The notes below the pieces were generated by a model, which searched no databases, had not been told where the DNA came from, and saw only the letters and a program-made list of their open reading frames with translations. Made by a program: the position numbers and the translations under genes. From the IMG/VR virus record IMGVR_UViG_3300010885_053065, positions 1 to 64,000 of that record: DNA of 64,000 bases; one strand, given 5' to 3'. This stretch comes from a virus. Shown here piece by piece: positions 2,273-58,204 of the stretch (position 1 is the stretch's first letter; every line of letters starts with the position of its first letter).

Positions 2273-2332
2273 TTTGTCTCCTTTGATTGGATAAATAGCC
2301 AGTTTAACGACTTGGCTTAGGTCACATCAATT

Positions 2333-3274
2333 TTAAAACGGTATTGCGTCAAAATCAGGTTGCACTTCCTGATAAGAAACTGACTGCACAGTTTCTTTCT
2401 TGTGAGTGTAAGTAGGGAAGTCAGCAAAAGACTCAAATAAACTTACTATAGTTTGTCCTACTTCGGTATCCTTACCGATATAAAGTTTATCAAAAGCCTC
2501 TGTAGTGGTCTCCACTTGTCTTTCTCTTACTGTTTTAGTAACAGAGATACCAACCTCACCTAGGGTAGGAACTTTATAACTTTGTGGCACAACAAATGCT
2601 GCTTTCTCTCCATTCTTGTGATAACCAAAACTCACGTCAAACACACACAAAGCATGAACAAGATTACTGAACCTTGTTCCTACAGGTTTCTTAGTTAACT
2701 GTGCAATAACTGCATCTACTTGTCCATAAAAATCTTGAAGAGCAGATCCTATACTCCCCCCTGGTCCTTTTCCCATGGGAAGAGATAAAGGCAAAGCATG
2801 CAGAGGTTGATTATTTTGATCTAGTAAAAGAACTAGGTTCCTTGTCTTCATTCTCCACTTTTTTTTAACACCTTGTTGTTCTTTTTCTTCCTTAGCTGCA
2901 TCGGTCAGTTGATCATTGCGATAAGCAAGGTCTTCAAAAACAAAGCGTCCTTGCTCGTTCTTTTTCTCAATCTCTGGAGCAGAGCGATGAAGAAAAACTA
3001 TTCTTGCAGAAGTAGTAATATATCCTTCTATTTCCTTTTCTTCTACTCCTAAAATGGCTGTATATTCAGCCCATTGAGTAGTAGAAGAAAAACCTATTTG
3101 CTCAGCCTGTTTTTTAGGAAGAAATAAACCATAAGGGATGTTACCTCTTTTAATCTCTTTAAGAGTACCTTTAGGGTTGATAAACTGAGCGTAATTTAAA
3201 GACTGTTTTCCAGTAGCTTCTTGACATTCAAAATCTGCAACGTTGACATTGGTAATGACTGCTAAGTTTGACAT
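2333..3274 (-). CDS. DUF5895-like protein, candidate ssDNA-binding protein
   Basis: Resembles cyanobacterial DUF5895. Ends in an acidic SSB-like tail, PDFDAIPF. Confidence 0.5.
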   Translation of the reverse strand: MSNLAVITNVNVADFECQEATGKQSLNYAQFINPKGTLKEIKRGNIPYGLFLPKKQAEQIGFSSTTQWAEYTAILGVEEKEIEGYITTSARIVFLHRSAPEIEKKNEQGRFVFEDLAYRNDQLTDAAKEEKEQQGVKKKWRMKTRNLVLLLDQNNQPLHALPLSLPMGKGPGGSIGSALQDFYGQVDAVIAQLTKKPVGTRFSNLVHALCVFDVSFGYHKNGEKAAFVVPQSYKVPTLGEVGISVTKTVRERQVETTTEAFDKLYIGKDTEVGQTIVSLFESFADFPTYTHKKETVQSVSYQEVQPDFDAIPF

Positions 3275-3373
3275 TTTGTTGACCTCTTTATTGATAAGTT
3301 AGTGATATTTATTTCCCTCTATTTTAACACAACAAATTAACCTATTGAGGGAATAAATAGGTTAATTTACTAA

Positions 3374-3718
3374 CTAAAAAGGGATAGAGAATGTCTCACT
3401 TATTCGGCATTTCCTGGCATACGGTCTACCAGAATTTACCTCTACTCCACGAATAAAAACTACATCTGCTGCTGTACGAAACGTTGATGCGATCTTAATA
3501 GGTACATAGTAGCGTTTCATCCACTTTTCACCATCTCCACATACCCAGTCAGAAATAACTTCTCCTCTTGTTAAATCTGCTGCTGAAATAGAAAAGGTTT
3601 CTTCAGGTGTGTAAGTGTCCCAAGTATTGCTGTATAATTGATGCATGGCTTGTCTCCTTTGTTTTTTGATGTTTATGAGCCATGCCAAGGGATTGTTAGC
3701 GCTTCCCCTTGGCTTCAT
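3374..3718 (-). CDS. Hypothetical protein
   Basis: True start is probably the internal Met after the AAGGAGACAAG RBS (~3646). Confidence 0.55.
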   Translation of the reverse strand: MKPRGSANNPLAWLINIKKQRRQAMHQLYSNTWDTYTPEETFSISAADLTRGEVISDWVCGDGEKWMKRYYVPIKIASTFRTAADVVFIRGVEVNSGRPYARKCRISETFSIPF

Positions 3719-3796
3719 GTTTTATATAATACTCTCGAAACCGATAGATTGTCAATAGGAAAATAAAATATTTTTTATAAAGTTTTGTTAAGGTAA

Positions 3797-4126
3797 ATGG
3801 ATAGTAAGAACATATTAGATCAGGACTTATCAGCTATTATTGGTGTTTGCCAAATAATAGAAAAAGGAATGGCTTTTCCTCCTGAAGGAGTACTTAAGAA
3901 AACTTCTTTGCGTGCTTTACGTATTTATGGACTACTTACGTATGAAGGGAAAAAGGCTTCTGATATTGTTATTGATTACAAAAATCGCTATCAAGAGTCT
4001 ATCGGGCTGGAGAGAGTAATAACTTTACTTTCGTCACTTCAGCAACACGGAGCCCCAATAGCCTGCAACAAAGAACAGGTAGACGGGAAGGGAAGGTTTA
4101 TTAATTTTTGGTTGAAAACTGAATAG
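3797..4126 (+). CDS. Hypothetical protein
   Basis: 109 aa ORF followed by a hairpin. Confidence 0.55.
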   Translation: MDSKNILDQDLSAIIGVCQIIEKGMAFPPEGVLKKTSLRALRIYGLLTYEGKKASDIVIDYKNRYQESIGLERVITLLSSLQQHGAPIACNKEQVDGKGRFINFWLKTE

Positions 4127-4236
4127 ATTTTTTAGACAGAGTAAAACGAGTGTTCGACTAACTAAAACCAATCTAACCCAATCTCTAAAAAGCACCCACA
4201 CAAAACTAATGGGTGCTTTTATTAGTACACACCCCT

Positions 4237-4745
4237 TTAAAAACTTAATTAAGAAAAAGACAACTTAACAAGTAAGTAAGTCCTACTGATTCTAATTTCA
4301 CTTTATTTGAGTCTGTAGGGCTTATTTATTTCTTTTTGGTAGAAAGAATAGCTTAGGTATATTTACCCGTCTTGTAACTCAAATTTAAGTGAGTTAGAGA
4401 GTATTTTAATTGGTTATAGGAATTTAATTAATTTTAAAAATCAAAAGCAGCTGCCGCTCCGGATCTTGTTGTTTGTTAATTTTATTATTTGTTAATAGAT
4501 CGTATTTATATATAAGCTGATCCTGTGCGAGCAGTTTCATGTGCGAGCAGAAGACTACGCACGCACAAAACGTGCGAGCAGTGGGATGTGCTCTAGAGTA
4601 AGGTTCTAGCCAAAGCTCAAAACGCTGTAATCAAAACACTCTCAAAAAAGTCTTGAGACATTCAAATAGGTTTCTATTAGGAAGATTGCTTAATATCAGA
4701 AATTTAATTAAATTTTTAGCCGTGTGTGGAGATGGCTAGTTATTA
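4237..4745. repeat. Dispersed non-coding repeat, copy 1 (inverted relative to copies 2 and 3)
   Basis: Near reverse complement of 54340-54849, with internal GTGCGAGCAG repeats. Confidence 0.95.
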
Positions 4746-4810
4746 ATATCTGAAGAAATTTTGCTATTCAAAAAAAAGACACGCGATAACGAGTGTCTTT
4801 TAAATTACTA

Positions 4811-5227
4811 TTATTTTTTGCTGGCAGCGTATAGGATTGTGCCTGAGATGAAAGCAATCCCACCAATTTCTATCAAATTTCTTTGCTCGTTCATTAAACC
4901 AGTGTTATAGACTTCGCTGAAACTGTCTGTTCTTACTGTTGTTGGTTTAAAGACACCAAAAATAATCAATATAAAGCCACCTAGCATCAGCAATATTCCG
5001 CTACTAGAAGAAGACGTGCTTTTATACTTTTCTATAGGATTTTCTGGGAGAAGATAAATATCTTGCGCTATTTTCCCAGAAACCTGAAAATCCACTGCTA
5101 AATCTTTTACAGGAAAACTAGTTTTGTCTTTCCAGTCGTTGTTAGAAAATGAGTATCTTTTACCGTCAGTGCCCAAGATAACATCCTGATTAGACGCAAT
5201 ATCAAAGGTCAAAACTTTTCCTTTCAT
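4811..5227 (-). CDS. Membrane protein with cold-shock-like N-terminal domain
   Basis: MKGKVLTFD...GTDGKRYSF..W...VDF pattern plus two hydrophobic segments. Confidence 0.6.
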   Translation of the reverse strand: MKGKVLTFDIASNQDVILGTDGKRYSFSNNDWKDKTSFPVKDLAVDFQVSGKIAQDIYLLPENPIEKYKSTSSSSSGILLMLGGFILIIFGVFKPTTVRTDSFSEVYNTGLMNEQRNLIEIGGIAFISGTILYAASKK

Positions 5228-5326
5228 GATTTAGGTGATTTACGTCATATTCCAGTGTTTTTACAGTGGTAGTATTGCAGCTAACTACGTACAGTAGTAA
5301 GAAGCATTATTTTAGTCGAAGCTTTA

Positions 5327-5644
5327 TCAATTCTCTACTAATTTGAGTCCATTCGCTTCCAAGACTCGTTTCCGTTGGTATAGTGTAAGTTCTCTTGCTA
5401 AAAGAGATAAGGGTGGCTTACCTTCTAGAAATCCTTTACATTCTTCTAGTGTCCAGCCTAATGCTGCTGCTAATTGTGCCCAAACAAGTGTAGGACCTGG
5501 ACCTTTGTTGTTAGGGTTCAACCACTTACTAATCGTGCTTTGACCAATACCAACAGCCCTAGCCATTCCGCTTTGGCTTTTGTATTTGGTCTCGATCAAA
5601 TCTATAACAAATTCTCTTACTTCGTTTTTATTGGTCGCAAGCAT
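5327..5644 (-). CDS. XRE-family HTH repressor (CI-like)
   Basis: SQSGMARAVGIGQSTISKWLN HTH, divergent from a small regulator. Confidence 0.8.
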   Translation of the reverse strand: MLATNKNEVREFVIDLIETKYKSQSGMARAVGIGQSTISKWLNPNNKGPGPTLVWAQLAAALGWTLEECKGFLEGKPPLSLLARELTLYQRKRVLEANGLKLVEN

Positions 5645-5659
5645 GTTTCTCCTTAATAT

Positions 5660-5820
5660 ATAGACTGAAAAAAAATGAGTCTTCTATTCAACTATTCAAC
5701 TATTAGACTATTCCATTAGTCTAATAGTCTATTAATCACATTGTATACTTTATTCCTAAATGATAAATCAATTAAAGGAAAATTAGTCTACTCGACTAAT
5801 AGACTAATTGATTATAATGT
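5660..5820. promoter_or_regulatory. Lysis-lysogeny switch region with operator-like repeats
   Basis: Palindromes ATTAGACTA-6-TAGTCTAAT (5702-5725) and AATTAGTCTA-9-TAGACTAATT (5781-5809), 8-bp tandem CTATTCAA, TATAAT near 5813. Confidence 0.65.
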
Positions 5821-5868
5821 AAAAACATTCGGTAGTCAATTAAATCAAACCACATTTTAGAGTCAAAT

Positions 5869-6057
5869 ATGAATATAGAACAGGGTATAGAAAAAGTAAC
5901 GTTCAAGATGCCAGCAGAGTATAAAAAAGCACTCAAGACAATAGCTGTTAGAGACAACACAACTATGGATGAATTGGTACGTTCTTCTATAGTAAAGACT
6001 TATGGTGAAGAAATTGAAAAAATTATTTCAGATATCTACCCCAAAATAAAATCTTAA
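5869..6057 (+). CDS. Ribbon-helix-helix regulator in Cro-like position
   Basis: KVTFKMPAEYKKALKTIAVRDNTTMDELVR RHH pattern. Confidence 0.7.
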   Translation: MNIEQGIEKVTFKMPAEYKKALKTIAVRDNTTMDELVRSSIVKTYGEEIEKIISDIYPKIKS

Positions 6058-16884: not shown

Positions 16885-17118
16885 TTATTTGTCATCCAAA
16901 GTATGTTCTTTTATAGCATTGTCTATCTCTTGTTTATTTTCTTGATAATACTTCCAAGCGTCGGTTAGATCTTCAGGAGAAATATCAGAACATTCTGTTA
17001 GCATTTCTGAATCGCTCATACCGTCCATATGAAGAGAGACTAAACGCCAAACAGTAAATCTAGTATTTTTAATTACTGCTCGTCCACCGCATACATCCTT
17101 CACTTTTTCTATTCTCAT
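16885..17118 (-). CDS. DUF433 family protein
   Basis: VCGGRAVIKNTRFTV...ISPEDLTDAWKYY. Confidence 0.85.
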   Translation of the reverse strand: MRIEKVKDVCGGRAVIKNTRFTVWRLVSLHMDGMSDSEMLTECSDISPEDLTDAWKYYQENKQEIDNAIKEHTLDDK

Positions 17119-17166
17119 TTTTGGTTTTATTGTAGGAAAATTAGGATTAATTGATTAGTTACAATA
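17111..17166. repeat. 56-bp direct repeat, left flank of the type V cassette
   Basis: 54/56 identical to 19250-19305. Contains the DUF433 start codon and its upstream region. Confidence 0.9.
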
Positions 17167-17192: not shown

Positions 17193-17512
17193 GTCACCTA
17201 ACACATCACTTGTCATAGCTTTGGTAACATTATTATTAAGGCTTACTTGGTTGACGGTCTTAAACCGTCACCTAACACATCACTTGTCATAGCTTTGGTA
17301 ACACTTTCGCGTAAGACTTACCAGATCTTGTCACCTAACACATCACTTGTCATAGCTTTGGTAACTGCTTTGAGAGGATGCCTTGCTGGTTGAGGTGGTC
17401 AGCTAGTCACCTAACACATCACTTGCCATAGCTTTGGTAACTAACTTAGCCTTATCTACTAACTCGAAAAATCTAGGTCACCTAACACATCACTTGTCAT
17501 AGCTTTGGTAAC
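17193..17512 (-). CRISPR. CRISPR array, 5 x 36-bp repeats (GTTACCAAAGCTATGACAAGTGATGTGTTAGGTGAC on -), 4 spacers
   Basis: Repeats at 17193, 17267, 17330, 17406 (one substitution) and 17477. Spacers are 38, 27, 40 and 35 bp. Orientation inferred from the leader and effector side. Confidence 0.97.
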
Positions 17513-17650
17513 CCCTCCTATCCGAAGCCTTGCTATGAGCTGATTACAACACCAGTTTGCGAGGGATAGAGTTTCATTTATTAACATCCAGCAATAAAGT
17601 ATAAACAAAATGGGCGAAAACCTTGCTAGGTAATGTCGCGAGGGATTATA
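17513..17650 (-). promoter_or_regulatory. CRISPR leader
   Basis: Non-coding stretch next to the first repeat, with two GCGAGGGAT motifs resembling cyanobacterial leaders. Confidence 0.55.
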
Positions 17651-17659
17651 AAGAAACAA

Positions 17660-17770
17660 GAGTTAGTTACAAAAGGTATGACAAGTTTTGTGTCTTCTCG
17701 CTTTGGAATAATCCTCTACGAATAAAGGCGGTAGGAGCGACCACCTATCAAGTTAATTGACTCGATATAT
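17660..17770 (-). ncRNA. Putative tracrRNA (ends approximate)
   Basis: Anti-repeat at 17666-17693 matches 24/28 nt of the repeat in opposite orientation. A TATAAT lies just after the effector stop codon. Confidence 0.75.
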
Positions 17771-17780
17771 CTATTATAGT

Positions 17781-19184
17781 TTATTCAAAAATATCAGATT
17801 TATTGATATTTTTGAAAACTTCTATTGCTGCTGTAGCTGAAGATTCAGTAGAGGATTTAGTTATCCTAACAACCTCTTTCTTTTTGCTGACAACAGGGAA
17901 TATTTCTAAACCAACTCTTTTTATATTGATTCCGGCATTAATATCTCTATCGATAAAAAGTTCTAATTCTTTATCAAAATACTCTCTAATTGAGCAATCA
18001 GTAAATACAAGCTCATCTCGATAGGAAAGTAATTGAGAAGTATATGCAGGATTAACTTTAACTACTTTAGCGTCATATTTTTGAGCAACCCATGTCAATA
18101 TCTCAACAAATTGTCCAAAAGCTGCATCTTGCCATGATTTATTTAAACCAGATTTAGATGATTGACCGTTAGGTAAATACGTTCCATCTTTATCTTGTTT
18201 GGCTTTATTTCTTTTTGTTAATCCTTTTAGATTTAAGTCTTCAACAAAGAATACTTTTTTGCCAGTTCTACACAAAGCATGAGCAATTTTATATTGAAAA
18301 TCTTTTCTTTGTCTAGCTATATGTTTATGAAGTTTAGCTTCTTTTATAGCTGCTTTTTTTCTTCGATTAGACCCTTTTTGTTTTTTAGCTTTTTCCTTAG
18401 AAATCTCAGCTAATTTATCTTGAGACTTCCTAAAAGCTTTCAATGAGTTGAGTTTTTCGCCTTCTGATGTTGCTAAATAAACATCATCTTTTAATACAGC
18501 ATCCAAGCCTATGGAATTATCCCAAGTTGGTAAAATTTCATCATCAATCTTGGTAGTAGTATGATCATCAATAATAAGCAATATATACCAACCATCTAGT
18601 TCTTTAGTGATACCAATCTGCTTAAGAATAAAACTTTCTGGTAATGGTCTATGAAGGTTAATTTTTACGTTCCCTATTTTTGGGATTCTAATTAACTTTT
18701 GTTTATTACTAATGTCCTCTTTTAACCAATTATCTTTAACGTTCTCAAAAAATAACGTTGTGTAGTCCTTACTTCCTTTGAACTTAGGTCTACCACTACG
18801 ATTGCCACTAGAATCTCCTTTAAGAAATCTTGTAAAAGCTAAATCAACTCTTTTACAAACGTTTTGCATTACAGAAGAATGTGGTTTAGCAAAATCTAGT
18901 ATTTCTCCTGAATGTTGAACAGCTACAGGAGATTTGTTTAATACAGCTATTTGTCTTTTTTGACTGTAATAATTCGGGCTATCTATCTTTGCTGATATTG
19001 AACAAGTAAGCGGACATCTATCAATTAAACAACTGTTATGACGTATGTTATTCTCTTCATACCAAGCAAAACGTTCACCAATCATTTTGTTATACCAATA
19101 TCGGCATATTCTCAACCAAATATTAAGTTCTTCTTCTTGTTCTTTTGTTTCAAATTCAATGAGGTATTTACGAGTGAGAATCAT
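17781..19184 (-). CDS. Compact TnpB-derived type V CRISPR effector (C2c8 / V-U2-like)
   Basis: RuvC motifs GLDAVL, FVEDL and DRDINAG. The TnpB Zn finger is replaced by TSQLLSYRDELVFTDCSIREY. Adjacent to anti-repeat and array. Confidence 0.85.
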   Translation of the reverse strand: MILTRKYLIEFETKEQEEELNIWLRICRYWYNKMIGERFAWYEENNIRHNSCLIDRCPLTCSISAKIDSPNYYSQKRQIAVLNKSPVAVQHSGEILDFAKPHSSVMQNVCKRVDLAFTRFLKGDSSGNRSGRPKFKGSKDYTTLFFENVKDNWLKEDISNKQKLIRIPKIGNVKINLHRPLPESFILKQIGITKELDGWYILLIIDDHTTTKIDDEILPTWDNSIGLDAVLKDDVYLATSEGEKLNSLKAFRKSQDKLAEISKEKAKKQKGSNRRKKAAIKEAKLHKHIARQRKDFQYKIAHALCRTGKKVFFVEDLNLKGLTKRNKAKQDKDGTYLPNGQSSKSGLNKSWQDAAFGQFVEILTWVAQKYDAKVVKVNPAYTSQLLSYRDELVFTDCSIREYFDKELELFIDRDINAGINIKRVGLEIFPVVSKKKEVVRITKSSTESSATAAIEVFKNINKSDIFE

Positions 19185-19249: not shown

Positions 19250-19305
19250 ATTCTCATTTTTGGTTTTATTGTGGGAAAATTAGAATTAATTGATTAGTTA
19301 CAATA
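19250..19305. repeat. 56-bp direct repeat, right flank of the type V cassette
   Basis: Copy of 17111-17166. Its ATG reads only MRMK-stop. Confidence 0.9.
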
Positions 19306-44489: not shown

Positions 44490-45265
44490 TGTTTTTAAGA
44501 TCTCCTAGACCTGATTTACTAGAGACTAGAGATAACTTTGGGATTGTGGCAAGTAGTTTAGGTGACAATAATTTAAAAAGCAATTTGCTAAGTTATTGGG
44601 ATCTAACACCTGCCTCTAGTTATAATGATCTAACAAATAATGGTAGTAACTTAACGTTAATTAATTCTCCTAGTGGAGATAATACAAATGGTGTATTATT
44701 AAATGGTACTAATCAATATTTATCGGTTGCTAGTAATTCGTATCTTCAATTTACTAGTAGCGATTTTACTATAGCTGGTTGGATCAATCCAACTTCTTTA
44801 GCTGCCAACGGAAGTTACAATTTTATTGTTTGCCAAGACAATATTGGGGTTGGTAGAAATTGGGGGGTTATTTATGATCCGACTACTGCAGATACTAAAT
44901 TAAATTTTCAAATTTTTAACTCATCTGGATCAGCTTTCTCTGTTAAATCAAACTTTCAACCAACAATAAATAATTGGTATTTTTTAGTTGCAACACACTC
45001 TACCTCTGCAAAAAAAATTACATTTATTGTTTTTGAAGGGTCTACCACTACACCTGTTTACGCAGGTGTAGTGACTTACACAGGAACTTTGGCAACAAAT
45101 TCTTTACTAACTACTTTTGGTTGCGTTTTAATTTCTGGTAGTCCAAATTTTTATTTTAATGGTAGGTTAAAGCAATGGGGTATTTGGTCTAGAACATTAA
45201 CAGGATCAGATATTCTGCAACTGCATAATAGCGGTAATGGGTTATTTTTTTCTTCGCTAGATTAG
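44489..45265 (+). CDS. LamG/concanavalin A-like tail protein
   Basis: LNGTNQYL, FTIAGWI, WYFLVAT, FNGRL…IWSRTLT. Confidence 0.85.
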   Translation: MFLRSPRPDLLETRDNFGIVASSLGDNNLKSNLLSYWDLTPASSYNDLTNNGSNLTLINSPSGDNTNGVLLNGTNQYLSVASNSYLQFTSSDFTIAGWINPTSLAANGSYNFIVCQDNIGVGRNWGVIYDPTTADTKLNFQIFNSSGSAFSVKSNFQPTINNWYFLVATHSTSAKKITFIVFEGSTTTPVYAGVVTYTGTLATNSLLTTFGCVLISGSPNFYFNGRLKQWGIWSRTLTGSDILQLHNSGNGLFFSSLD

Positions 45266-45273
45266 AGTTAATA

Positions 45274-45960
45274 TTAATCAACATCTGATTGGTTGGATTG
45301 AGCAATATAAGAGATTAACTCAAGAAATCTACCACCACGCTTAGTAGATATCAATTGCTCTGTTGAGTGAAAATCTAATACTGAGTAGAGTTTAAATAGA
45401 TTCTGAGATTTGTAGACACCTGATAGTATCTCTGTCTTAGTGCATCCAAGAGACATTAACAGTTCAAAATAACCTAAAAACTCTATTAGCTCTTGTCTAT
45501 TTATAGTAAGTAGATTTATCTCAAAAAGTACAGGAAATATTTCTCTACTATTAGCTTCTTTAGCTAAGAATAAAATATGCTTTTGTCCAGATTCAGCTAT
45601 AGCAATAGTAAAAGGCGGTTCAGGAGGGTTAACAAGCCATTCTCTAATCTGTGGTCTTGTGGGTAAGTCGGTTACTCTATCACCTTCAATCTTAGGGTAA
45701 GACTCTTTCTCTGAAATTAACCAAGACCAACAACGACCAAATAATAGTACTTCTTTTTGACTATGTGGATTATAGTATTTAAGTCTTAGAGGGATAACGT
45801 AATGACAACGATCACATAACTTATCAGAGGTTGGAGACTTAGCTGAACTGTGAGCCGTGAAACTGTCTTTTAGTATTCCTTCTTTAGGTTTGGTGGCAGG
45901 AATTGAACCACAGAGATAGCATGAGTCTTTTATTTTAGTGTCACTAGTCACGTCACTCAC
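45274..45960 (-). CDS. csf1: Type IV CRISPR large subunit Csf1 (Cas8-like)
   Basis: CYLCG…LCDRC Zn finger and NPPEPPF…SGQKH. Confidence 0.8.
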   Translation of the reverse strand: MSDVTSDTKIKDSCYLCGSIPATKPKEGILKDSFTAHSSAKSPTSDKLCDRCHYVIPLRLKYYNPHSQKEVLLFGRCWSWLISEKESYPKIEGDRVTDLPTRPQIREWLVNPPEPPFTIAIAESGQKHILFLAKEANSREIFPVLFEINLLTINRQELIEFLGYFELLMSLGCTKTEILSGVYKSQNLFKLYSVLDFHSTEQLISTKRGGRFLELISYIAQSNQSDVD

Positions 45961-46046
45961 CTTGGCTTTGGTAATAGTTCTCTTGGAGAGTTGGGAGATT
46001 TGTGTGCTATGTCACTAAACACGACACTTGCCTTGGCTTTGGTAAT
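45940..46046 (-). CRISPR. Mini-array: repeat (46011-46046), 35-bp spacer, repeat (45940-45975)
   Basis: Two 36-bp degenerate repeats. The 46011 copy is 28/36 identical to the main array repeat. Confidence 0.7.
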
Positions 46047-46319
46047 ACTAAAATTGTGAACTGCATAAAGAGAAGTGACATCCTCAAAAATGATTTTCTC
46101 TTTAATTTTGAGATCTTCTAGGCTATCGTAATCTACAGGCTCTCCATCTTCGGTGAGCAAGAATATATCCTGAGCGCCTATTCTGAGTGCATAAACTACA
46201 TCAGGACGACTAGGCAGTGAGACGCTGTAAAGGGTATATTGTCCCATACTAATAAGGCTTAAAACAGCATCTGGGAGTTTACTGAGACGACTTTTTGGGA
46301 TGGACGAAGTGGTGATCAT
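45957..46319 (-). CDS. Hypothetical protein whose C-terminus reads through the mini-array
   Basis: GAGAGGA RBS, 120 aa, lies between repeats. Confidence 0.5.
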   Translation of the reverse strand: MITTSSIPKSRLSKLPDAVLSLISMGQYTLYSVSLPSRPDVVYALRIGAQDIFLLTEDGEPVDYDSLEDLKIKEKIIFEDVTSLYAVHNFSITKAKASVVFSDIAHKSPNSPRELLPKPR

Positions 46320-46496
46320 GGCTCTATCCTCTCTTTATTAGCTAATCTCAAAGTTGTAACAGATTACCAACTTGTTACCAAAAGATGATGGTGGCTAAAG
46401 TGAAGTAAATGGGTATTAATGGTTAACTAAGCATTATGCTCAATTTATGGATTACATTCTACCTACAATCTAGCTCACTAAAAATATTTATTTCTG

Positions 46497-46532
46497 GTCA
46501 CTAAACGCGTCACTTACCTTGGCTTTAGCAGT
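46497..46532 (-). repeat. Third CRISPR-like repeat
   Basis: GTCACTAAACGCGTCACTTACCTTGGCTTTAGCAGT (+), related to the 46011 copy. Confidence 0.7.
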
Positions 46533-46546
46533 AGCCTGTCTTTAGT

Positions 46547-46807
46547 TCAAGAGTAGATCAATTCAGCTATTCGTTTTTCCTCAGCCAGAAATTTTAATAA
46601 GTTATCGGGAAGCGGAACAGCTTGTAACTCAATCCAGTACAAACAATGTCTTGGCGCAAATTCTATATCACGATCTGTAGAAGATCCTACGGGAAAGCCA
46701 TTCATGTCTAAATATCTCAACACATCAAACAACTCCTCTTTGTCTTTTGTCCTAAATATCAACTTTGAAGAATTGCGAGGTGACTGCAAATATATTTCAT
46801 ACATCAT
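46547..46807 (-). CDS. Hypothetical protein
   Basis: 86 aa ORF. Confidence 0.5.
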   Translation of the reverse strand: MMYEIYLQSPRNSSKLIFRTKDKEELFDVLRYLDMNGFPVGSSTDRDIEFAPRHCLYWIELQAVPLPDNLLKFLAEEKRIAELIYS

Positions 46808-46809
46808 TT

Positions 46810-47165
46810 TTACCTTAATAGATGATAAACTTTATTGTTACACAACAAAAAACTTTTACCTATTTTCTCCAAACCTTTATTTAATATGTTGATTGCTGCA
46901 TTTTGATCCCTATCTAAAACACATTGACAGTGTGGGCATTGATGCAGTCTTACACTTAAAAGTTTTGGCACTTTTTCACCGCAACTTGAGCAATTCTGAG
47001 AAGTGTTGTGGGGGTTAACTTCTATTACTTGAACTCCAAACTTAGAAGCTATTTCCTTTAGTCTTAAAACAAAATAACCCCATGCTGCATTAGAAATAGC
47101 TTTAGAAGGATTTTCACAGTAAATTTTTGCATAACAGGATCGGTAGAGCCAAAACTTTTTTCATA
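46810..47165 (-). pseudogene. tnpB: Internally deleted tnpB remnant
   Basis: Manual translation: IYCENPSKAISNAAWG…EVNPHNTSQNCSSCGEKVPK…QCPHC…DRDQNAAINI. No in-frame start. Upstream hairpin GCCTAGA-TTAC-TCTAGGC. Confidence 0.85.
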
Positions 47166-47232
47166 TGACACTCCGATAGTTTTTATTAGCGAGAAATCAA
47201 AAAGCCTAGAGTAATCTAGGCTGATAGTGTGG

Positions 47233-47297
47233 TTTAGTATTCCTTCTTTAGATTTGGTGGCAGGAATCGAACCACAAAGATAGCAAGAGTCTTTCAC
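47233..47297 (-). pseudogene. Truncated duplicate of the csf1 5' end
   Basis: 47233-47294 is 58/62 identical to 45869-45930 (KDSCYLCGSIPATK.KEGIL). Confidence 0.9.
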
Positions 47298-47311
47298 GCA
47301 ATCTACAAATA

Positions 47312-47671
47312 TTATTTAAGTTTTTTCTCTATTGTAGTGGTGATGGTCTGATTGATAATCATAAGCTCTTTCTTGTTTTCGGTAATAGTTATAGTATGTT
47401 TGGTATCTTCTCTTACAGAATTTACTTCTGTATCATCTCTATTGGTATTAATAACTTTTTTAGAATAATCTACATCATACTCAATTCTTTTTATGTTGCA
47501 TGTTTTAGGTTGTAAATTACAACTGGGTTGAATACTGGTAGAGCATCTATTTAAATTTGATATTTTGCAAGCTGGCGTGTTTTTAAGAGTCTCAAGATCT
47601 TCTGCTAGCACACTATTTGTATTTACTTCTAATGCAATAAAAAGTAATAAAATAAACAATGAAATACGCAT
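47312..47671 (-). CDS. Secreted hypothetical protein
   Basis: N-terminal signal peptide and four Cys. Confidence 0.55.
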   Translation of the reverse strand: MRISLFILLLFIALEVNTNSVLAEDLETLKNTPACKISNLNRCSTSIQPSCNLQPKTCNIKRIEYDVDYSKKVINTNRDDTEVNSVREDTKHTITITENKKELMIINQTITTTIEKKLK

Positions 47672-47789
47672 AAGTTAAACCCCTGTTTCTTTATGATTTA
47701 TTAATATTTTAACAACAAAATATAGTTTTCTGTATACACTTTTCATTGTTTTAAGATATTCTCGTTTTATATTTAATAGTTCCGATAAT

Positions 47790-48374
47790 TTAAACAAACA
47801 CTCCACAACCTAACTTGTGTTTACCGCCAATACCTGACACTTGAAGCTTAATAGAATCTTCTTTACTTAAGTTAAATGCTTTAGCTTTAAACCCTACTAC
47901 AGTATAATTCCTCTCACTTCTTGGGATGCGTATTGTCAGTCTTTCTAATACTTCAATATCTGCTTTAATCTCTAACTTATCTAGTTGTTTATCTGCTGCT
48001 ATTTTAAATAGCTCTGGAGTGACAGCATTCTTGATTACAACCAATCTAGCTATTAACTCTGTTTTACCTTCTAGCATCCTATATAAAGGGTTTCCTAGCC
48101 TTATTTGGTAGCGCATTATCTTAAGGTTAGAGTCTTTAAGTTTAGTAAATAACTTGGCGTTATCTATAGTTGTTCTGATTAACAAAGTAGATTTATCTGT
48201 TAATTTAATCTCTCCATTGTTGTTAGGGAGTCCAGTTATTGTGTTAATAAAAACTTCCTCTAGACTATGGAGTTCTTGTATTTTTGAACACAAAGCAGAG
48301 TATAGATAATAATTATGGTCAGCATAGAGAGACTGACCATAAACAGGGAATAGAATATCAACAAATTGAGACAA
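47790..48374 (-). CDS. cas6: Cas6 endoribonuclease (Myxan/Cmx6-like)
   Basis: VDILFPV…ADHNYYLYSAL and C-terminal G-loop GIGGKHKLGCGVF. Confidence 0.9.
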   Translation of the reverse strand: MSQFVDILFPVYGQSLYADHNYYLYSALCSKIQELHSLEEVFINTITGLPNNNGEIKLTDKSTLLIRTTIDNAKLFTKLKDSNLKIMRYQIRLGNPLYRMLEGKTELIARLVVIKNAVTPELFKIAADKQLDKLEIKADIEVLERLTIRIPRSERNYTVVGFKAKAFNLSKEDSIKLQVSGIGGKHKLGCGVFV

Positions 48375-48393
48375 GTTAAATTAATTTCTCCAG

Positions 48394-49161
48394 TTACTGT
48401 AGAGACAAACTAACCAAGTTAAGTTTGTCTCTAGTCTCGTTCAAATCTTTTTCTATGTAATCTGAGACTGGAAAATCACTAAAAATATCAACAGAGTTTA
48501 CTCCTATATTCCAAGCTTTAACAATGCGCTCAGTTTTAAAATAATCAACTCCTTGTGCTTCTAAAAATATCTGTAGTTGCTCCAACAATAGAATAGGAGG
48601 ATTGCAGCGATTTATCATTCCTTCTTCAAAAGCAATTATTTCTAGTTCTCCTTGTACTGTAGTAGGAACATCTAGTAATATATGGTGAAAATCATGAACC
48701 AAGATATAGCTAGACGGAAACATTGATGGTTTATCTACTGTTGCTACGTTTCCATTATTTTGATAATACTGGTGTAGAGCATATCCTACTGTTCCCTTCT
48801 TACAAAAAGGAAGTTTTTTAAAAAGTTTTATATTTTCTGGGTTAGGAGTTAATGATTCTAAGAAATAGCTTTTGAGTCCAATTAATTTATCTTTTAAAGA
48901 CATAAAAGGCAATATTTTTGGCATTGTTTGTGTCCTTAAAGTACAAGTTGGTCTTACGTATTCAAACCTTATTCGGCTAAAGATCTGCCATAAATTAGCA
49001 GAAGTAACACCTAGTAAATTAACTGGTGTCAGTAAACTTACTACATCGATTTCTGGTTTAACTAATTTAATAATTTCTTCTCTATTTTCTGCTTGAATAA
49101 TTCGATTAAATAGATTATTATCGGTCAAAACTTGTTCAAGAAAATTAAGTTCAACAGTCAT
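48394..49161 (-). CDS. Coq4-like metalloprotein
   Basis: GTVGYAL and HDFHHIL…GELEIIAF (HDxxH…E). Confidence 0.7.
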   Translation of the reverse strand: MTVELNFLEQVLTDNNLFNRIIQAENREEIIKLVKPEIDVVSLLTPVNLLGVTSANLWQIFSRIRFEYVRPTCTLRTQTMPKILPFMSLKDKLIGLKSYFLESLTPNPENIKLFKKLPFCKKGTVGYALHQYYQNNGNVATVDKPSMFPSSYILVHDFHHILLDVPTTVQGELEIIAFEEGMINRCNPPILLLEQLQIFLEAQGVDYFKTERIVKAWNIGVNSVDIFSDFPVSDYIEKDLNETRDKLNLVSLSLQ

Positions 49162-49882
49162 AAAATGCCTCAGTTACATTCTGTTTTAAATATGAGTATA
49201 ACATAGGATTAAATCGCTTCATGTTCTCTAAAGAGGTTTTCTGTAAGGATTTGTTTTTGTTAGCAGAATACCAATAATTAGCATGAGCATTGGTTCTACT
49301 TGTTTTACGGTCTAATTTGTCATACAAGTCCAAGTAAGGAATATCATAATAAAAAAGATAAGCCCAAACATCCTGCCATGACCACCATGCAAGAGGACAT
49401 ACTCTATAGTATCCTTTATGTTTTCCTGTTTGGTATTGATGAATTAACCCGTATTTTTTTAGAGATCTTCTTCTATTAATACTTTCTTCTGCTCTTAGCC
49501 CAACAAAAGCCACACTGTAATCAACTACTGCATTTATCCTGTCTTGGACTGTATCAGAAGTAGCAGCATTCTCTTTTTGAGCTTTAATATCTAAATACTT
49601 AGTTGGAAATTTCTCACAATACCTAGAGATTGTTTCCGAGTAATTAGAAACATAATCTTGCTCTATTGAGCTATAACAAACTGCAGCAATATCAGGTTTA
49701 ATTTGTTGGCAAAGGTGCAACATTACGGTTGAATCTTTGCCCCAACTAATAGCTACATAAGAGTCACCAATCTCTAGAGCTTCAGAAATTATTTGCTTGG
49801 ATTTCTCTACTCTTTTTTTAAAGCTATCTAGTAGCGCATAACCTCTATAGGCTTGATATTCTGGATCATCTTTTAAAAGCAA
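49151..49882 (-). CDS. CysH-like PAPS reductase-family protein of a type IV-B locus
   Basis: SWGKDS, GLRAEESINR, PLAWWSWQDVWAY. Confidence 0.88.
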   Translation of the reverse strand: MLLKDDPEYQAYRGYALLDSFKKRVEKSKQIISEALEIGDSYVAISWGKDSTVMLHLCQQIKPDIAAVCYSSIEQDYVSNYSETISRYCEKFPTKYLDIKAQKENAATSDTVQDRINAVVDYSVAFVGLRAEESINRRRSLKKYGLIHQYQTGKHKGYYRVCPLAWWSWQDVWAYLFYYDIPYLDLYDKLDRKTSRTNAHANYWYSANKNKSLQKTSLENMKRFNPMLYSYLKQNVTEAFYDC

Positions 49883-49885
49883 CTG

Positions 49886-50584
49886 TCAATTAGCATTGGT
49901 TTTTAACCTAGGCTTCTCCTTAATCTGTCTTACATTGTCTTTTGGTATATAACACAGTACTTGATTCTGATGCATCCATGATGGTGTTTTCCAAGCCACA
50001 ACCATCATGTCATGCACCTCTAAATCTAGTTGCTGTGCCATCTCTAAAGGAATTGGTCTTGTGACACGTCTTTCTTTCTCAAACGACCAGTCATAGTCAA
50101 TTTCTTTAACTGACCACTCAGAGACATAAGCAAAGCCGTAGGATCTCTTTTTCCCTAAGTGAGTAACTGTAGATAGAGCTAACTTTATCTGCTCTTTATC
50201 TCCTACTACAAACCAGTCAATCCTTTCAGTAAGCTTCAAGAATAGAGGTAGATCATAAGACTTGAATTGACCATCTGAGCCAGAAAACTTAGCCTTCTTC
50301 TTACCCCAATCAAGATGCTCACTTTGATAATCCCACCGTTTTCTATATCTATCAGTACTCTCTATAGAGTATAAGTAGTGAGGACTAGAAGCTTGATAGA
50401 AACCTAGTTCATGCTTTTTAATTGGTAACTCAATCTCAGTTAAAGTCTCAAAGGTTACGTTAGTGTCAAGTCTACCAGTTGATTCTCTAACTGAGTACTC
50501 TATTATCCCTGTGATATCAGGAGAAAGATTGTCTGTTACAGCAATAGGTCTAGCTAGATTAGCTGTTATTTGTAAAGGAATCAT
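49886..50584 (-). CDS. csf3: Type IV Csf3 (Cas5-like)
   Basis: PLQITANL, WFVVGDKEQI, LGKKRSYGF, RPIP. Confidence 0.85.
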   Translation of the reverse strand: MIPLQITANLARPIAVTDNLSPDITGIIEYSVRESTGRLDTNVTFETLTEIELPIKKHELGFYQASSPHYLYSIESTDRYRKRWDYQSEHLDWGKKKAKFSGSDGQFKSYDLPLFLKLTERIDWFVVGDKEQIKLALSTVTHLGKKRSYGFAYVSEWSVKEIDYDWSFEKERRVTRPIPLEMAQQLDLEVHDMMVVAWKTPSWMHQNQVLCYIPKDNVRQIKEKPRLKTNAN

Positions 50585-51144
50585 GGCTTACTTAAATCCA
50601 ATTGATTACAAAGTTTATCTATTACCAAGTGATAAACAGTACCACTAGAGCCAGACTCATGTGTGTTAATTAATAGTTCAACTAAAGCAAAAAAACTTAA
50701 AGGTCCTTGAAGCGTTACGTCCAACTGCAAAGAAGAAATAACATTTTTTATCTTCTCAGCAAGAACGTTTAGTAGACACTTTTTAATCGAGATTCTTGAT
50801 GGCTCAAAAAGATGTACTGATAGATAAATATAGGCAGCAACTAGGTCAATTAGTGAGTGTTCTTCTGACTCAATATCAGTTGCTTCTGTTGTGGATAATA
50901 CTGATTCAATTGTTGTCATTTCTACCTGATTAATTATTTCTATTTGTTGTGATTCTTCTATTTTATCAATTGTCTCTTCTTGCTCAGTAATCCCAATACC
51001 GTGCTCATTTAGATATTTCAAATACCAATTACGCATCGTTTTAGGAGGAACCAAAGGGAAATCTTTATAAAGTCTTCTAGGTTGACTTCCATTTCTAAAC
51101 CTATTTAATATCTCTGACTTGTACTTGTCTCCTCTACTAGCCAT
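50581..51144 (-). CDS. HTH protein paralogous to the TerS N-terminus
   Basis: YKDFPLVPPKTMRNW versus YKEFSDVPPKTIRNW in 25213-25698. Confidence 0.7.
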   Translation of the reverse strand: MASRGDKYKSEILNRFRNGSQPRRLYKDFPLVPPKTMRNWYLKYLNEHGIGITEQEETIDKIEESQQIEIINQVEMTTIESVLSTTEATDIESEEHSLIDLVAAYIYLSVHLFEPSRISIKKCLLNVLAEKIKNVISSLQLDVTLQGPLSFFALVELLINTHESGSSGTVYHLVIDKLCNQLDLSKP

Positions 51145-52307
51145 TATCCAAATACTCCCTTGATTTCACTGTTATTACTTTTAATAAACTCTCGATAATC
51201 AGCCAGATAAGATTTATATCTCTCTTGCTGTAGACTAGCTCTACTTTCTAATACTTGATGTCCATCTTTAATTGATATCCAACTACCTGCTTCTTCTCCA
51301 CTAGAGTAATAAATCTCTACAGCAACTCTACCGAAACCTGTATTACTCATCCCTCCTAAATAAGGATTCTCTGCCCAATTGCTAATAGCATCAGCTATAA
51401 ACCCTTCCTCAATATCAGTAACGTTAGCATCCCACCGAGAGTAGAGTTTTGCTCCTTGCTGTATTAACCATGCACCCATAATCATTTGATTAGACTTTTG
51501 TTTCTCTTCTTTTTTCTCTGTACTATCTCCAAATAAAGATTGTTGTCCTTCTTTAGATGCAGCAGGCAATAAGTACTTAACAAGAGAAGGATCATGGTGT
51601 GAGTCCATTCTTACCTTTTGGTTATAGGTTAACCAGTGTGGGTAAGGTCTGAGAATCTCTTGTAGGTAGGGTAGCCAATACTTTAGAGTTTCTTTGTAGC
51701 TAGTATCGTCTAGCGTCTGTTCTCTCTTAAAGAGGAAATTAGAGACTCTTGTTTCCTCTAAATCTTTTTTAGCTTGAGAGATAGCTTTTAACCCCTCTAA
51801 AGCAGCTGCAGGTAAAGCAGGTTGAAATATTTGAAACTGATTTAAGGCTGACTCGTAACAAATAAGCATTGCATCGCCAACATTAATCCGACCTGGAATC
51901 ATTTGAGCATCTTTACCACCAAAGACTCCTTTAGGTTTAGCTGTTCCTAGTACTGATATAGGAGGTAAAAACTGTCTTATCTTTTTATCAAGCTCTAGAT
52001 CATTAGCTGTACCACCATCAATTGCACCACCACAGAACAAAGTATGATGCAAGATTGGAGATACCTGTATCCCTAGTTCACTTAAGAAAGAATCGACTCC
52101 TACACGTCTTAATATTCTGTTCCTTAGTGCGTTACCTGAGAGACAAAATACTTGGCTAGGATTGCCTTCTATATCGGTTATAGCTAGAGTTTTGAGGTTA
52201 GCTTGATTGCCTACTGATTCTCCAATATGGGATAGAGGTGACAAAGTTTCTATTACTAAGTGAAAAGTAATTCTGTGGCGTTGGTTCGGGTTGTAATTAT
52301 TTGGCAT
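51144..52307 (-). CDS. csf2: Type IV Csf2 (Cas7-like)
   Basis: TLSPLSH, SGNALR…LRR, LFCGG, PPISVLG, LGGMSNTGFG. Confidence 0.9.
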   Translation of the reverse strand: MPNNYNPNQRHRITFHLVIETLSPLSHIGESVGNQANLKTLAITDIEGNPSQVFCLSGNALRNRILRRVGVDSFLSELGIQVSPILHHTLFCGGAIDGGTANDLELDKKIRQFLPPISVLGTAKPKGVFGGKDAQMIPGRINVGDAMLICYESALNQFQIFQPALPAAALEGLKAISQAKKDLEETRVSNFLFKREQTLDDTSYKETLKYWLPYLQEILRPYPHWLTYNQKVRMDSHHDPSLVKYLLPAASKEGQQSLFGDSTEKKEEKQKSNQMIMGAWLIQQGAKLYSRWDANVTDIEEGFIADAISNWAENPYLGGMSNTGFGRVAVEIYYSSGEEAGSWISIKDGHQVLESRASLQQERYKSYLADYREFIKSNNSEIKGVFG

Positions 52308-52616
52308 TTAACTATTAATTATCTCCTCTTCATCTGGATAAACCTTTGTGGTCTTTTCACTTACGTAATAAATTTCAAGATTTGGACAAAGAGACAATAT
52401 TTTGTCTGACTCTTCTTGTCGTCTTTGTTTTTCATACTCAATCATTTTATCTATTAACAATTCTTCATCTTTTTCTTGATGAGCGTCTACAAGGAACTTA
52501 GCTACTTTATCTAAATTTCTACTTATTTCATTGGGATTATTACAATCAATAGACTCTACAAACAATCGTCCTGCATCATCTGGAGTCAACTTCTCTATCG
52601 CCTTTTTAGACATCAA
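52308..52616 (-). CDS. Hypothetical protein in the type IV operon
   Basis: Coupled ORF. Confidence 0.5.
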   Translation of the reverse strand: MMSKKAIEKLTPDDAGRLFVESIDCNNPNEISRNLDKVAKFLVDAHQEKDEELLIDKMIEYEKQRRQEESDKILSLCPNLEIYYVSEKTTKVYPDEEEIINS

Positions 52617-53118
52617 TTACATCCTCATCTTCTTGTTTATTGAGCCATAAAGCTTTATCTTCTTCATGTTTTAAGCGAACATATAAAGCGACAATTTGTG
52701 ACTTTTCTAGACACTGTCTTAATACGGCTCTATCGGTTATTCCAAACTGAATAGACCACCGTTTTATTATATCTTCCCAAGATTCCCACACTAAAGACTG
52801 ATCTGAGTCAATCTGTTGTATTTCTCCTACATTTCCATCCTCAGCTTTAGCTGCTCTTAAAATTACTTGTTGAGGTTGAACTAATCTAGTCCACTCTTTA
52901 GGTTTAAGTGTTGGAACAACCAATCTTTTAGAGAGATAGTGAATATAGTCGTTTAAGTTTCTAGAGGGAATAGCAGCATTTTCTATTGATGTTTGAACAT
53001 ACTCCCAAGTCTTAATTCCGTTAGCAGGAGAACGTTGTTTGTCACGGCATCTAAATACCCAATAAGTTAAGGCGCTAGCTAAAGCTATTGGTTTGTCTTC
53101 TGTATTAATTCCTAACAA
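52606..53118 (-). CDS. Putative Cas11 small subunit
   Basis: Small helical protein upstream of csf2. Call rests mainly on position and the W…I..AA…L..Y pattern. Confidence 0.6.
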   Translation of the reverse strand: MLGINTEDKPIALASALTYWVFRCRDKQRSPANGIKTWEYVQTSIENAAIPSRNLNDYIHYLSKRLVVPTLKPKEWTRLVQPQQVILRAAKAEDGNVGEIQQIDSDQSLVWESWEDIIKRWSIQFGITDRAVLRQCLEKSQIVALYVRLKHEEDKALWLNKQEDEDVIDV

Positions 53119-53393
53119 ATTCTTGTCCCTATTTCTATTAATAATTTTCCGTCAGAATCTAATTGATATTCTATAAATTCTAACTTACGGTAAACAATTT
53201 GATTACCTGTGTGATAACACTTGTTTATCTTTATACACATATATTCAATTGACGGAGATTTGTATTTTTTTAAATGATTCTGTAAACGCTTTTTACAATC
53301 TTCTAGATTATAAAAATTTCTTCGTTCAATACAATACTCTGTTTTTTTAGAGATTAAATCTACTTTAATATACTCAAAATAATAAAAAAACAT
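53112..53393 (-). CDS. Hypothetical AT-rich inserted gene
   Basis: Flanked by an exact 16-bp direct repeat (53100-53115, 53409-53424). Confidence 0.5.
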   Translation of the reverse strand: MFFYYFEYIKVDLISKKTEYCIERRNFYNLEDCKKRLQNHLKKYKSPSIEYMCIKINKCYHTGNQIVYRKLEFIEYQLDSDGKLLIEIGTRIC

Positions 53394-58173: not shown

Positions 58174-58204
58174 AAATACTAAATAATAATTATCTCTATT
58201 CTAA

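Follow-up and report, generated by a model that had tools for sequence, protein, structure and literature searches.

The last gene of a type IV-B-like CRISPR-Cas operon, csf1, is interrupted close to its start in the freshwater phage genome stored as IMG/VR virus record IMGVR_UViG_3300010885_053065. We examined the first 64 kb of this 89,719-bp record (hereafter the window); the record has direct terminal repeats and is rated complete. Codons 2-22 of csf1 are present twice, in slightly different versions spaced 1,364 bp apart. The native GTG start codon is retained by the upstream copy, which then runs into unrelated sequence; the downstream copy continues as a full-length csf1. Between them we found a terminator-like hairpin, pieces of genes and three CRISPR-like repeats. 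With moderate confidence, we consider a recombination scar to be the best explanation: a patchwork cassette would have recombined into csf1, and the gene would now be read from a GTG within the third of these repeats.

Along the minus strand, the native GTG at 47297 and codons 2-22 are followed by the hairpin, a 16-codon open reading frame (ORF), a TnpB fragment, ORF86, repeat 1 and some 175 nt that are non-coding; then come ORF120, repeats 2 and 3 with 33 nt between them, and eight bases, the last three of which are ATA, ahead of the second copy of codons 2-22 and the full csf1. The features are as follows.

47233-47297, minus strand: upstream csf1 fragment, consisting of the native GTG (47297-47295) and the 62-nt copy of codons 2-22 (sequence, repeat search)
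47064-47297, minus strand: 77-codon ORF, 22 csf1 codons plus 55 codons without csf1 homology (ORF list)
47203-47222, minus strand: terminator-like hairpin, AGCCTAGA-TTAC-TCTAGGCT and then a T-run (fold and shuffles)
47114-47164, minus strand: 16-codon ORF MKKVLALPILLCKNLL with GGAG ahead of it, which looks like the beginning of a gene for a lipoprotein or secreted protein (frame translation, by eye)
46860-47106, minus strand: C-terminal TnpB fragment of ~82 aa (PF07282, E 4e-7, and alignments)
46547-46807, minus strand: ORF86, an orphan small ORF that begins 3 nt past the stop of the TnpB frame (ORF list)
46496-46533, minus strand: repeat 1, solitary, 448 nt from repeat 2 (repeat search)
45957-46319, minus strand: ORF120, a real small phage gene in residues 1-91
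46010-46047, minus strand: repeat 2 (repeat search)
45977-46009, minus strand: spacer-like interval of 33 nt between repeats 2 and 3 (sequence)
45939-45976, minus strand: repeat 3, with GTG 45960, GTG 45951 and an AAGG(TGA) Shine-Dalgarno-like stretch (sequence)
45869-45930, minus strand: downstream copy of the 62-nt csf1 5' segment, codons 2-22, with ATA before it (sequence, repeat search)
45274-45960, minus strand: csf1 (type IV Cas8-like), 228 codons from GTG 45960 (PADLOC PDLC01721, E 2.3e-25)

A repeat search picked out the direct repeat pair 45858-45930 / 47222-47294 (73 nt, 89% identity). Its core, 45869-45930 against 47233-47294, is identical at 58 of 62 positions and covers csf1 codons 2-22; in the 11 nt past the core, 7 positions match. 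When the first 84 kb of the genome were shuffled ten times by mononucleotide, no local direct repeat exceeded 26 matches. A preliminary description of this locus had reported the duplication with a single amino-acid change, and this is what we see: three of the core differences (TCT/TCA, CTT/CTC and TCG/TCA) are synonymous and the fourth, TCT/CCT, exchanges Ser for Pro, both of which are present at this site in relatives. The same description correctly had csf1 break off soon after its start at GTG 47297, since homology to csf1 is gone after codon 22. The upstream stub has the N-terminus M-K-D-S-C-Y-L-C, and its start fits the pattern of the 26 relatives that we inspected. The 77-codon ORF that begins here has no Pfam or PADLOC match and is probably a non-functional by-product. 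It had also been argued that the mostly synonymous divergence suggests a functional replacement N-terminus. What holds of this is that the insert supplies a codon 2-22 copy of its own, so that it is followed by a complete csf1 body. The excess of three synonymous changes over one is marginal (the probability of at least three of four is 0.045-0.074 under neutrality), the ATA at the downstream start speaks against it, and two alleles that had diverged before recombination joined them would explain the ratio equally well.

The record comes from a metagenome, and the two copies differ in the way strain variants do, so that a chimeric join of two such variants could in principle have created the duplication during assembly. 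The chance of this is negligible in our judgement, because contigs from two runs match the record with 0 differences. A Logan contig of run X1 (17,507 nt), which is probably the source sample, covers 44500-49000 and thus the entire stretch; run X2, which stems from a different sample and study, contributes a 371-nt contig that covers 47150-47520 and spans the left junction. The right junction (45931) is bridged in X1 only, and the X2 contigs leave parts uncovered. Moreover, the two copies have no exact run longer than 19 nt in common, and ORF86 is recorded on three contigs. No joints that would indicate junction variants are listed among the X1 and X2 contigs, and neither circles nor excised forms were seen, a population check that rests on contigs, which drop rare variants and cannot show rare excised forms.

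The hairpin at 47222-47203 stands directly 3' of the upstream repeat copy. It has an 8-bp stem and a 4-nt loop, is followed by TTTTTGATTT, and reads as an intrinsic-terminator-like stem-loop; none of 200 shuffles was as stable (-11.5 kcal/mol, z -3.64). It had been called IS-like (IS, insertion sequence). The hairpin itself is real, and nothing that we tested supports the label; we rejected it as an IS end, there being no similarity to the flanks of TnpB relatives. The 16-codon ORF between the hairpin and the TnpB fragment is cut off by the latter.

The deleted tnpB of the preliminary description is there as well. Its stop-free frame (47160-46810) lacks about 300 N-terminal residues, and what remains comprises the end of RuvC-II, the CxxC...CxxC zinc finger and RuvC-III; of the helix-turn-helix (HTH), OrfB_IS605 RuvC core and TNB zinc finger that make up a full-length TnpB, just the TNB/C-terminal portion is left. 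Aligned with a 408-aa TnpB, the fragment matches residues 284-366, and aligned with the phage's own 467-aa Cas12, to which it is 40% identical, residues 348-427. Its best relatives in viral contigs (37 loci) are 45-55% identical. A relative is also encoded on 367 GTDB stretches; among the best 80, filamentous cyanobacteria (Okeania, Dapis, Trichodesmium, Microcoleaceae) rank first, with 60-69% identity, and there are many loci per genome, as is characteristic of an insertion sequence. A blastn comparison of the whole insert with the 117 loci fetched via TnpB gave 60 rows, all of them inside 47106-46865, and neither element ends nor a guide-RNA region conserved with these relatives. Compared with the TnpB proteins of IS200/IS605 elements, the fragment matches the TNB zinc finger (PF07282) and the C-terminal RuvC (OrfB_IS605 / Cas12f1-like), its nearest relatives are multi-copy in single cyanobacterial genomes, and an intact 408-aa TnpB of another subfamily occupies the same operon position in a related locus (L171, see below). 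It differs in that only ~82 of ~400 residues are left and that element ends and guide-RNA region are not recognisable. The fragment cannot be active.

Both of the small ORFs reported for the insert are present. In a search of 5.8 billion proteins, ORF86 was found only as the identical sequence, on three contigs of which the longest has 89,732 bp, and it has no Pfam, PHROG or PADLOC match. For both ORF86 and ORF120, viral contigs held no relative and the ESM Atlas gave no usable lead. ORF120 is preceded by a good GAGAGGA site, and its residues 1-95 are 88% identical to P0001, a 99-aa protein encoded on a 2,386-bp contig, for which we found no relative in metagenome contigs. The end of P0001 falls eight residues beyond the start of repeat 2 in the window, and homology to ORF120 is lost exactly at that start. 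There is also a weak match of residues 7-89 to phrog_30138 (E 0.0028; function unassigned in PHROG). Residues 1-91 of ORF120 are a real small phage gene, to which a tail (residues ~92-120) is attached that reads through repeat 2 and the spacer into repeat 3.

The three repeats, also noted before, are 79-87% alike (87% between repeats 2 and 3, 79% for repeat 1). They overlap two coding frames and form no stable hairpin (z between -1.1 and +0.9). Their similarity to the 36-nt repeats in the type V array of the phage, part of a cassette elsewhere in the window, is ~75%.

17781-19184: cas12, part of the type V cassette
17193-17512: five-repeat type V array with 36-nt repeats
17666-17693: anti-repeat, a candidate tracrRNA (trans-activating CRISPR RNA), identical at 24 of 28 positions to the reverse complement of the type V repeat

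Going by this similarity, the insert repeats are probably the decayed remains of three repeats akin to the type V array that the phage itself carries. At up to 9 substitutions, neither the insert repeat nor the type V repeat occurs in the 169 loci that we fetched (1.57 Mb). Searched as IUPAC patterns, neither the csf1 5' segment nor the csf1-adjacent repeat had a match in viral contigs, and Rfam returned only a sub-threshold snoRNA-like chance match on the insert. The 33-nt spacer has no target in the genome or the fetched loci at up to 6 mismatches, and its 25-nt core has no match in viral contigs. A search for intact versions of the insert, which the preliminary description had proposed, found none, either in viral contigs (via ORF86, ORF120 and the IUPAC patterns) or in the phage collection, where a megablast query with 45000-53200 gave no match. 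Mini-arrays and solitary repeat units (SRUs) carried by viruses are a known category. The window phage resembles these in having a repeat, a 33-nt interval and a further repeat, plus one solitary repeat; it differs in that its repeats are degenerate and overlap coding frames, and in that no spacer target was found. The term SRU is used in PMC7038947, whose authors found no SRU close to IV-B loci.

A TnpB-family fragment upstream of three repeats on the same strand had suggested that a mobile TnpB-plus-repeat element inserted here, giving the type IV operon a working array and csf1 a replacement N-terminus. The distance from the TnpB stop to repeat 1 (277 nt) is indeed close to that from the cas12 stop to its array (267 nt), the repeats resemble those of type V, and the operon encodes Cas6. 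However, the fragment is far closer to the multi-copy cyanobacterial TnpBs than to the phage Cas12 (60-69% versus 40%), and such repeats accompany TnpB in none of the 117 TnpB-fetched loci (none of 169 overall). DNA homology does not extend beyond the coding fragment, and the two stop-to-array intervals are not homologous. The insert has no anti-repeat, its best score of 8 being the shuffle mean, whereas the anti-repeat between cas12 and the type V array scores 20 against a shuffle maximum of 13. In addition, the repeats are no more than 79-87% alike and lack a stable hairpin, a gene separates repeat 1 from repeat 2, and the single spacer has no match. The donation of an array by such an element is therefore not borne out, and we consider it improbable. 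The proposed parallel with a C2c8 cassette holds in another sense than was meant, namely that both cassettes have a 56-62-nt duplicate of the downstream gene start on their flanks. The intact cassette at 17193-19184 has the Cas12, anti-repeat and array of a C2c8/V-U2-like system, and the insert has a truncated nuclease and no anti-repeat. Because the TnpB homology is confined to the fragment, ORF86 is an orphan, ORF120 is a separate gene and the repeats are absent from the fetched loci, the insert is a patchwork of at least five unrelated pieces and not one TnpB-plus-array element. The cassette is accumulated debris: a terminator, a gene start, a piece of cyanobacterial TnpB, ORF86, ORF120 and a repeat relic.

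The second copy of codons 2-22 does continue as a full csf1, as had been described. Its 228-codon frame is open and matches two Csf1 profiles (PDLC01721 in residues 13-189, and PDLC01574, E 1.5e-21), and the N-terminal CxxC...CxxC of Csf1 is present as CYLC and CDRC, the motifs being as in the 26 inspected relatives. In all 26, csf1 begins with ATG or GTG 2-6 residues before CYLC. In the downstream copy the native start reads ATA, and none of ATG, GTG and TTG occurs there; one has to go back 10 and 13 codons from the Cys to reach the nearest GTGs. These two, GTG 45951 and GTG 45960, are the only standard in-frame starts, and both lie within repeat 3. GTG 45960 overlaps the TGA of ORF120 (GTGA), and AAGGTGA is found five bases ahead of GTG 45951. 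From this arrangement we infer that csf1 is now translated from one of the repeat-3 GTGs, coupled to ORF120. The resulting Csf1 would carry 7-10 extra N-terminal residues.

Our csf1 searches returned 132 related loci (52 viral, 80 from metagenomes), the best of which are 61-64% identical. In most of them csf1 lies directly 3' of cysH or a Coq4-like gene, and none of the 132 has ORF119 (the gene upstream of csf1), ORF120, ORF86 or the window's TnpB piece. The closest overall relative is L171 (cysH 68%, Coq4-like 53%, cas6 46%, csf1 63%). Its cas6-csf1 interval (2035-5995) holds 4 kb with five ORFs, among them the intact 408-aa TnpB (HTH, OrfB_IS605 and TNB), which is on the opposite strand and has its 5' end 160 nt from the csf1 start. 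The interval can therefore be regarded as a cargo hot spot. A second copy of the csf1 start is found in two of the 78 loci with a recognisable csf1 start (132 examined). In both of these, L006 (1964-2596) and L201 (59-697), a second csf1 start of 14 or 20 codons is fused in frame to cas6 (csf1'::cas6), with 32/33 and 39/44 nt identical between the duplicates. The Cas6 domain of the fusions is complete, with residue 20 or 22 corresponding to position 1 of the Pfam profile. The fusion is followed by between one and four small ORFs and by a hairpin, and the full csf1 lies 1,255 or 2,066 bp downstream. L006 and L201 probably share one event. The upstream copy of L201 is closer to the csf1 of another locus, L016 (45/54), than to its own downstream copy (38/54), which points to two parental alleles. 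L016 itself has the last ~75 nt of csf1 three times (5243, 6580, 7242), around two inserted segments downstream; the repeat encodes EASE.VIASKRG.RL.DLVSYV. Therefore, both ends of csf1 serve as junctions. Four of six loci with an extra C[YF]LC motif (L015, L029, L199, L216) were dropped from the count, as the motif was on the opposite strand and in stop-containing frames.

The window itself offers another instance. Its type V cassette (2,139 bp) is bounded by 56-nt direct repeats (17111-17166 / 19250-19305, 54/56 identical), each consisting of the 48 nt upstream of a DUF433 gene (16885-17118) and the first 8 nt of that gene, ATGAGAAT; the cassette thus sits 8 nt into the gene start. A footprint of a cassette with a duplicated gene end is accordingly seen not only at csf1 of the window and in the type V cassette, but also in csf1'::cas6 (two contigs) and at the 3' end of csf1 in L016. 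Local direct repeats of 19-79 nt occur at several further places in the window: the ATGs of two successive genes fall within 20-nt repeats (40745/41095), intergenic repeats surround small ORFs (36492/36959, 77/79; 34941/35456, 66/71; 36909/37450, 46/49), and another pair lies at 58189/58902. Some of the local repeats contain TTGACA...TATA-like promoter motifs.

Two routes could have led to the scar. An out-of-register crossover between related phages might have relied on homology at the csf1 end of the insert and on an illegitimate join at the opposite end. Alternatively, a cassette that had been excised as a circle might have integrated by a single crossover via the ~62 nt of csf1 homology. 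Either route would place the 1,364-bp cassette within the first 22 codons of csf1, between two slightly different copies of codons 2-22, and the homology would for this reason start right after the start codon and end at the cargo. The upstream copy, running from its native GTG into the hairpin and unrelated sequence, would then be a dead stub, and the downstream copy would be the full-length csf1 translated from repeat 3 in coupling with ORF120. A nuclease specific for the csf1 5' end, or guide-directed homing, was also considered and dropped, given that no spacer or guide matches csf1 and that the footprint in L016 is at the 3' end.

Homology-facilitated illegitimate recombination and Campbell-type integration by a single crossover are general mechanisms. 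The csf1 locus agrees with them in that one side is anchored in short homology, the insert lies between direct copies, and the differences between the copies would reflect donor and recipient alleles; it differs in that the route at csf1 is deduced from the footprint alone. In T4-type phages, non-essential ORFs stand between short direct repeats, and recombination inserts, deletes and circularises such cassettes, according to Arbiol et al. (2010, PMC2839356). The window phage likewise has repeated intergenic promoter-like units (34941/35456, 36492/36959). Measured against the PeSL (promoter-plus-stem-loop) shuffling outlined there, the csf1 repeat differs in being the coding 5' end of the downstream gene, and the csf1 locus in having a hairpin on one side only and no enriched promoter-like site; the comparison is made for a phage not shown to be T4-like, in whose contigs, the only material examined, circles were not seen.

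Several observations count against the recombination scenario with a new start codon. The ATA and the upstream terminator-like hairpin would be just as expected if csf1 were silenced. We found 10 promoter-like sites in the stretch from the hairpin to csf1, where 13.2 were expected, none of them above background. Only two lineages, that of the window and that of L006/L201, show the footprint at the csf1 5' end, and neither copy in the window has a nearer sequence than the other copy (50/54), as an in-situ duplication would predict. Neither an uninterrupted close ancestor nor a donor or recipient was found among the csf1 relatives. Finally, junctions may lie near gene ends because harmless recombinants and stubs survive, and not through a mechanism or a hot spot.

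The first two of these points are what a pseudogene would look like. The insertion, possibly by the same route, may have cut csf1 from its start codon and its operon and left a silent relic that has not yet decayed. Any N-terminal extension would moreover be unlike all 26 inspected relatives. On the other hand, the frame is intact and matches the hidden Markov model over its full length, the rest of the operon is intact, the stop of ORF120 overlaps a GTG in the csf1 frame with an AAGG stretch ahead of the second GTG, and the left junction is kept at 100% identity in a second sample. The open frame is a weak argument, as an unselected 687-nt frame would be open in about one third of cases at ~3% divergence per copy (a rough estimate). 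Loss of csf1 is a possibility to be taken seriously, though not the one we would expect.

The mutual closeness of the copies instead raises the question of a tandem duplication in situ, by slippage or unequal sister exchange, after which one insertion after another (IS, small genes, an array fragment) would have filled and degraded the interval. The patchwork nature of the interval does imply several events, and the cas6-csf1 interval of L171 gathers cargo without any duplication. Such a history requires more steps, though, and it does not account for the upstream copy of L201, which is nearer to the allele of another lineage than to its own. Ser and Pro are both natural variants at the variable site, and three synonymous changes out of four fit alleles that diverged under selection better than the decay of a dead stub. 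We think it unlikely, and retain recombination between two alleles as the preferred reading.

The scar is a fresh example of known phage mosaicism in an interesting operon; it is ordinary in kind, and what makes it valuable is the documented route rather than any new mechanism. Across a large group of phages, probably cyanobacterial ones, recombination junctions recur at the ends of csf1, where cas6, small genes, IS copies and repeat units have been inserted. Two of the inserts left a duplicated csf1 start, which in one lineage became fused in frame to cas6. Type IV-B is, to our knowledge, the least understood CRISPR-Cas subtype, and we know of no account of how its Cas6 and arrays were gained or lost. 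The key question raised by the locus concerns a csf1 start inside a CRISPR-like repeat: it makes it possible to test whether Csf1 can cope with, or even requires, an altered N-terminus, and whether a repeat in the mRNA couples Cas6 activity to csf1 expression. A more far-reaching idea, to which we give little credence, is that the first ~60 nt of csf1 are a portable landing pad. Cassettes with a copy of the csf1 start would then be excised as circles and integrate into related IV-B operons, and phage IV-B systems without arrays could have gained cas6 (L006, L201) and repeat units (the window) in this way. If Cas6 also cut repeat 3, the amount of Csf1 would be controlled, giving feedback between the processing of CRISPR RNA and the assembly of the effector.

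The operon of which csf1 is the last gene extends from 53118 to 45274 on the minus strand (PADLOC/Pfam and ORF list). Upstream of csf1 it contains the following genes.

52606-53118, minus strand: cas11 (PADLOC, E 4.6e-13)
between cas11 and csf2, minus strand: orf102 (ORF list)
51144-52307, minus strand: csf2 (PADLOC, E 5e-43)
between csf2 and csf3, minus strand: orf187 (ORF list)
49886-50584, minus strand: csf3 (PADLOC, E 1.2e-38)
49151-49882, minus strand: cysH-like (PAPS-reductase) gene (Pfam, E 4.5e-16)
48394-49161, minus strand: Coq4-like gene (Pfam/PADLOC scans)
47790-48374, minus strand: cas6 (Pfam PF09559, E 7e-51)
47312-47671, minus strand: orf119 (ORF list)

The combination of cas11, csf2, csf3 and csf1 with an adjacent cysH-like gene is that of subtype IV-B. 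No operon ORF scanned with PADLOC and Pfam matched a DinG or RecD helicase model, the PADLOC scan being confined to 45274-53118 and to ORFs other than orf93. According to Pinilla-Redondo et al. (2020, PMC7038947), IV-B loci are cysH-associated, lack a helicase, a CRISPR array and, apart from 12 instances, Cas6, and reside mainly on actinobacterial plasmids. The window operon is like them in combining these four genes with a PAPS-reductase-like gene on a mobile element. It departs from the typical trait of having neither cas6 nor an array, as it encodes Cas6, which that paper records for those 12 instances only, and contains three internal CRISPR-like repeats. A Coq4-like gene and a csf1 separated from its own start are further differences, as is the location in a complete 89.7-kb phage genome, with 132 related phage and metagenome loci.

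Some of the related loci have CRISPR arrays or hairpins of their own near csf1. Regular arrays lie a few kb downstream of csf1 in the IV-B phages L029 (9653-10103 and 16039-16354), L033, L034, L037 and L038, and their repeats, which end in GTTGAAAC or are of the GTTTCC...GCAAG type, are unlike those of the window. A terminator-like hairpin (AGCC.TCC...GG..GGCTTTTGCC) is found right before the csf1 start in L006 (~3190-3218) and also in L012, L013 and L201; to judge from these sequences, csf1 may often be transcriptionally separated from the upstream genes in relatives.

The type V array of the phage has spacers of 27-40 nt, which have no match in the genome or the fetched loci, and shows a TRF period of 147 (17193-17550). 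Spacers 1 and 3 and the sequence past the last repeat have a GCCTTGCTGGTTGA-like stretch in common. The array seems to have grown via duplication of a two-unit block and not by spacer uptake. Beyond the window, positions 84,400-87,500 of the genome form a long repetitive coding region with many internal repeats of 100-330 nt, probably a fibre-like gene.

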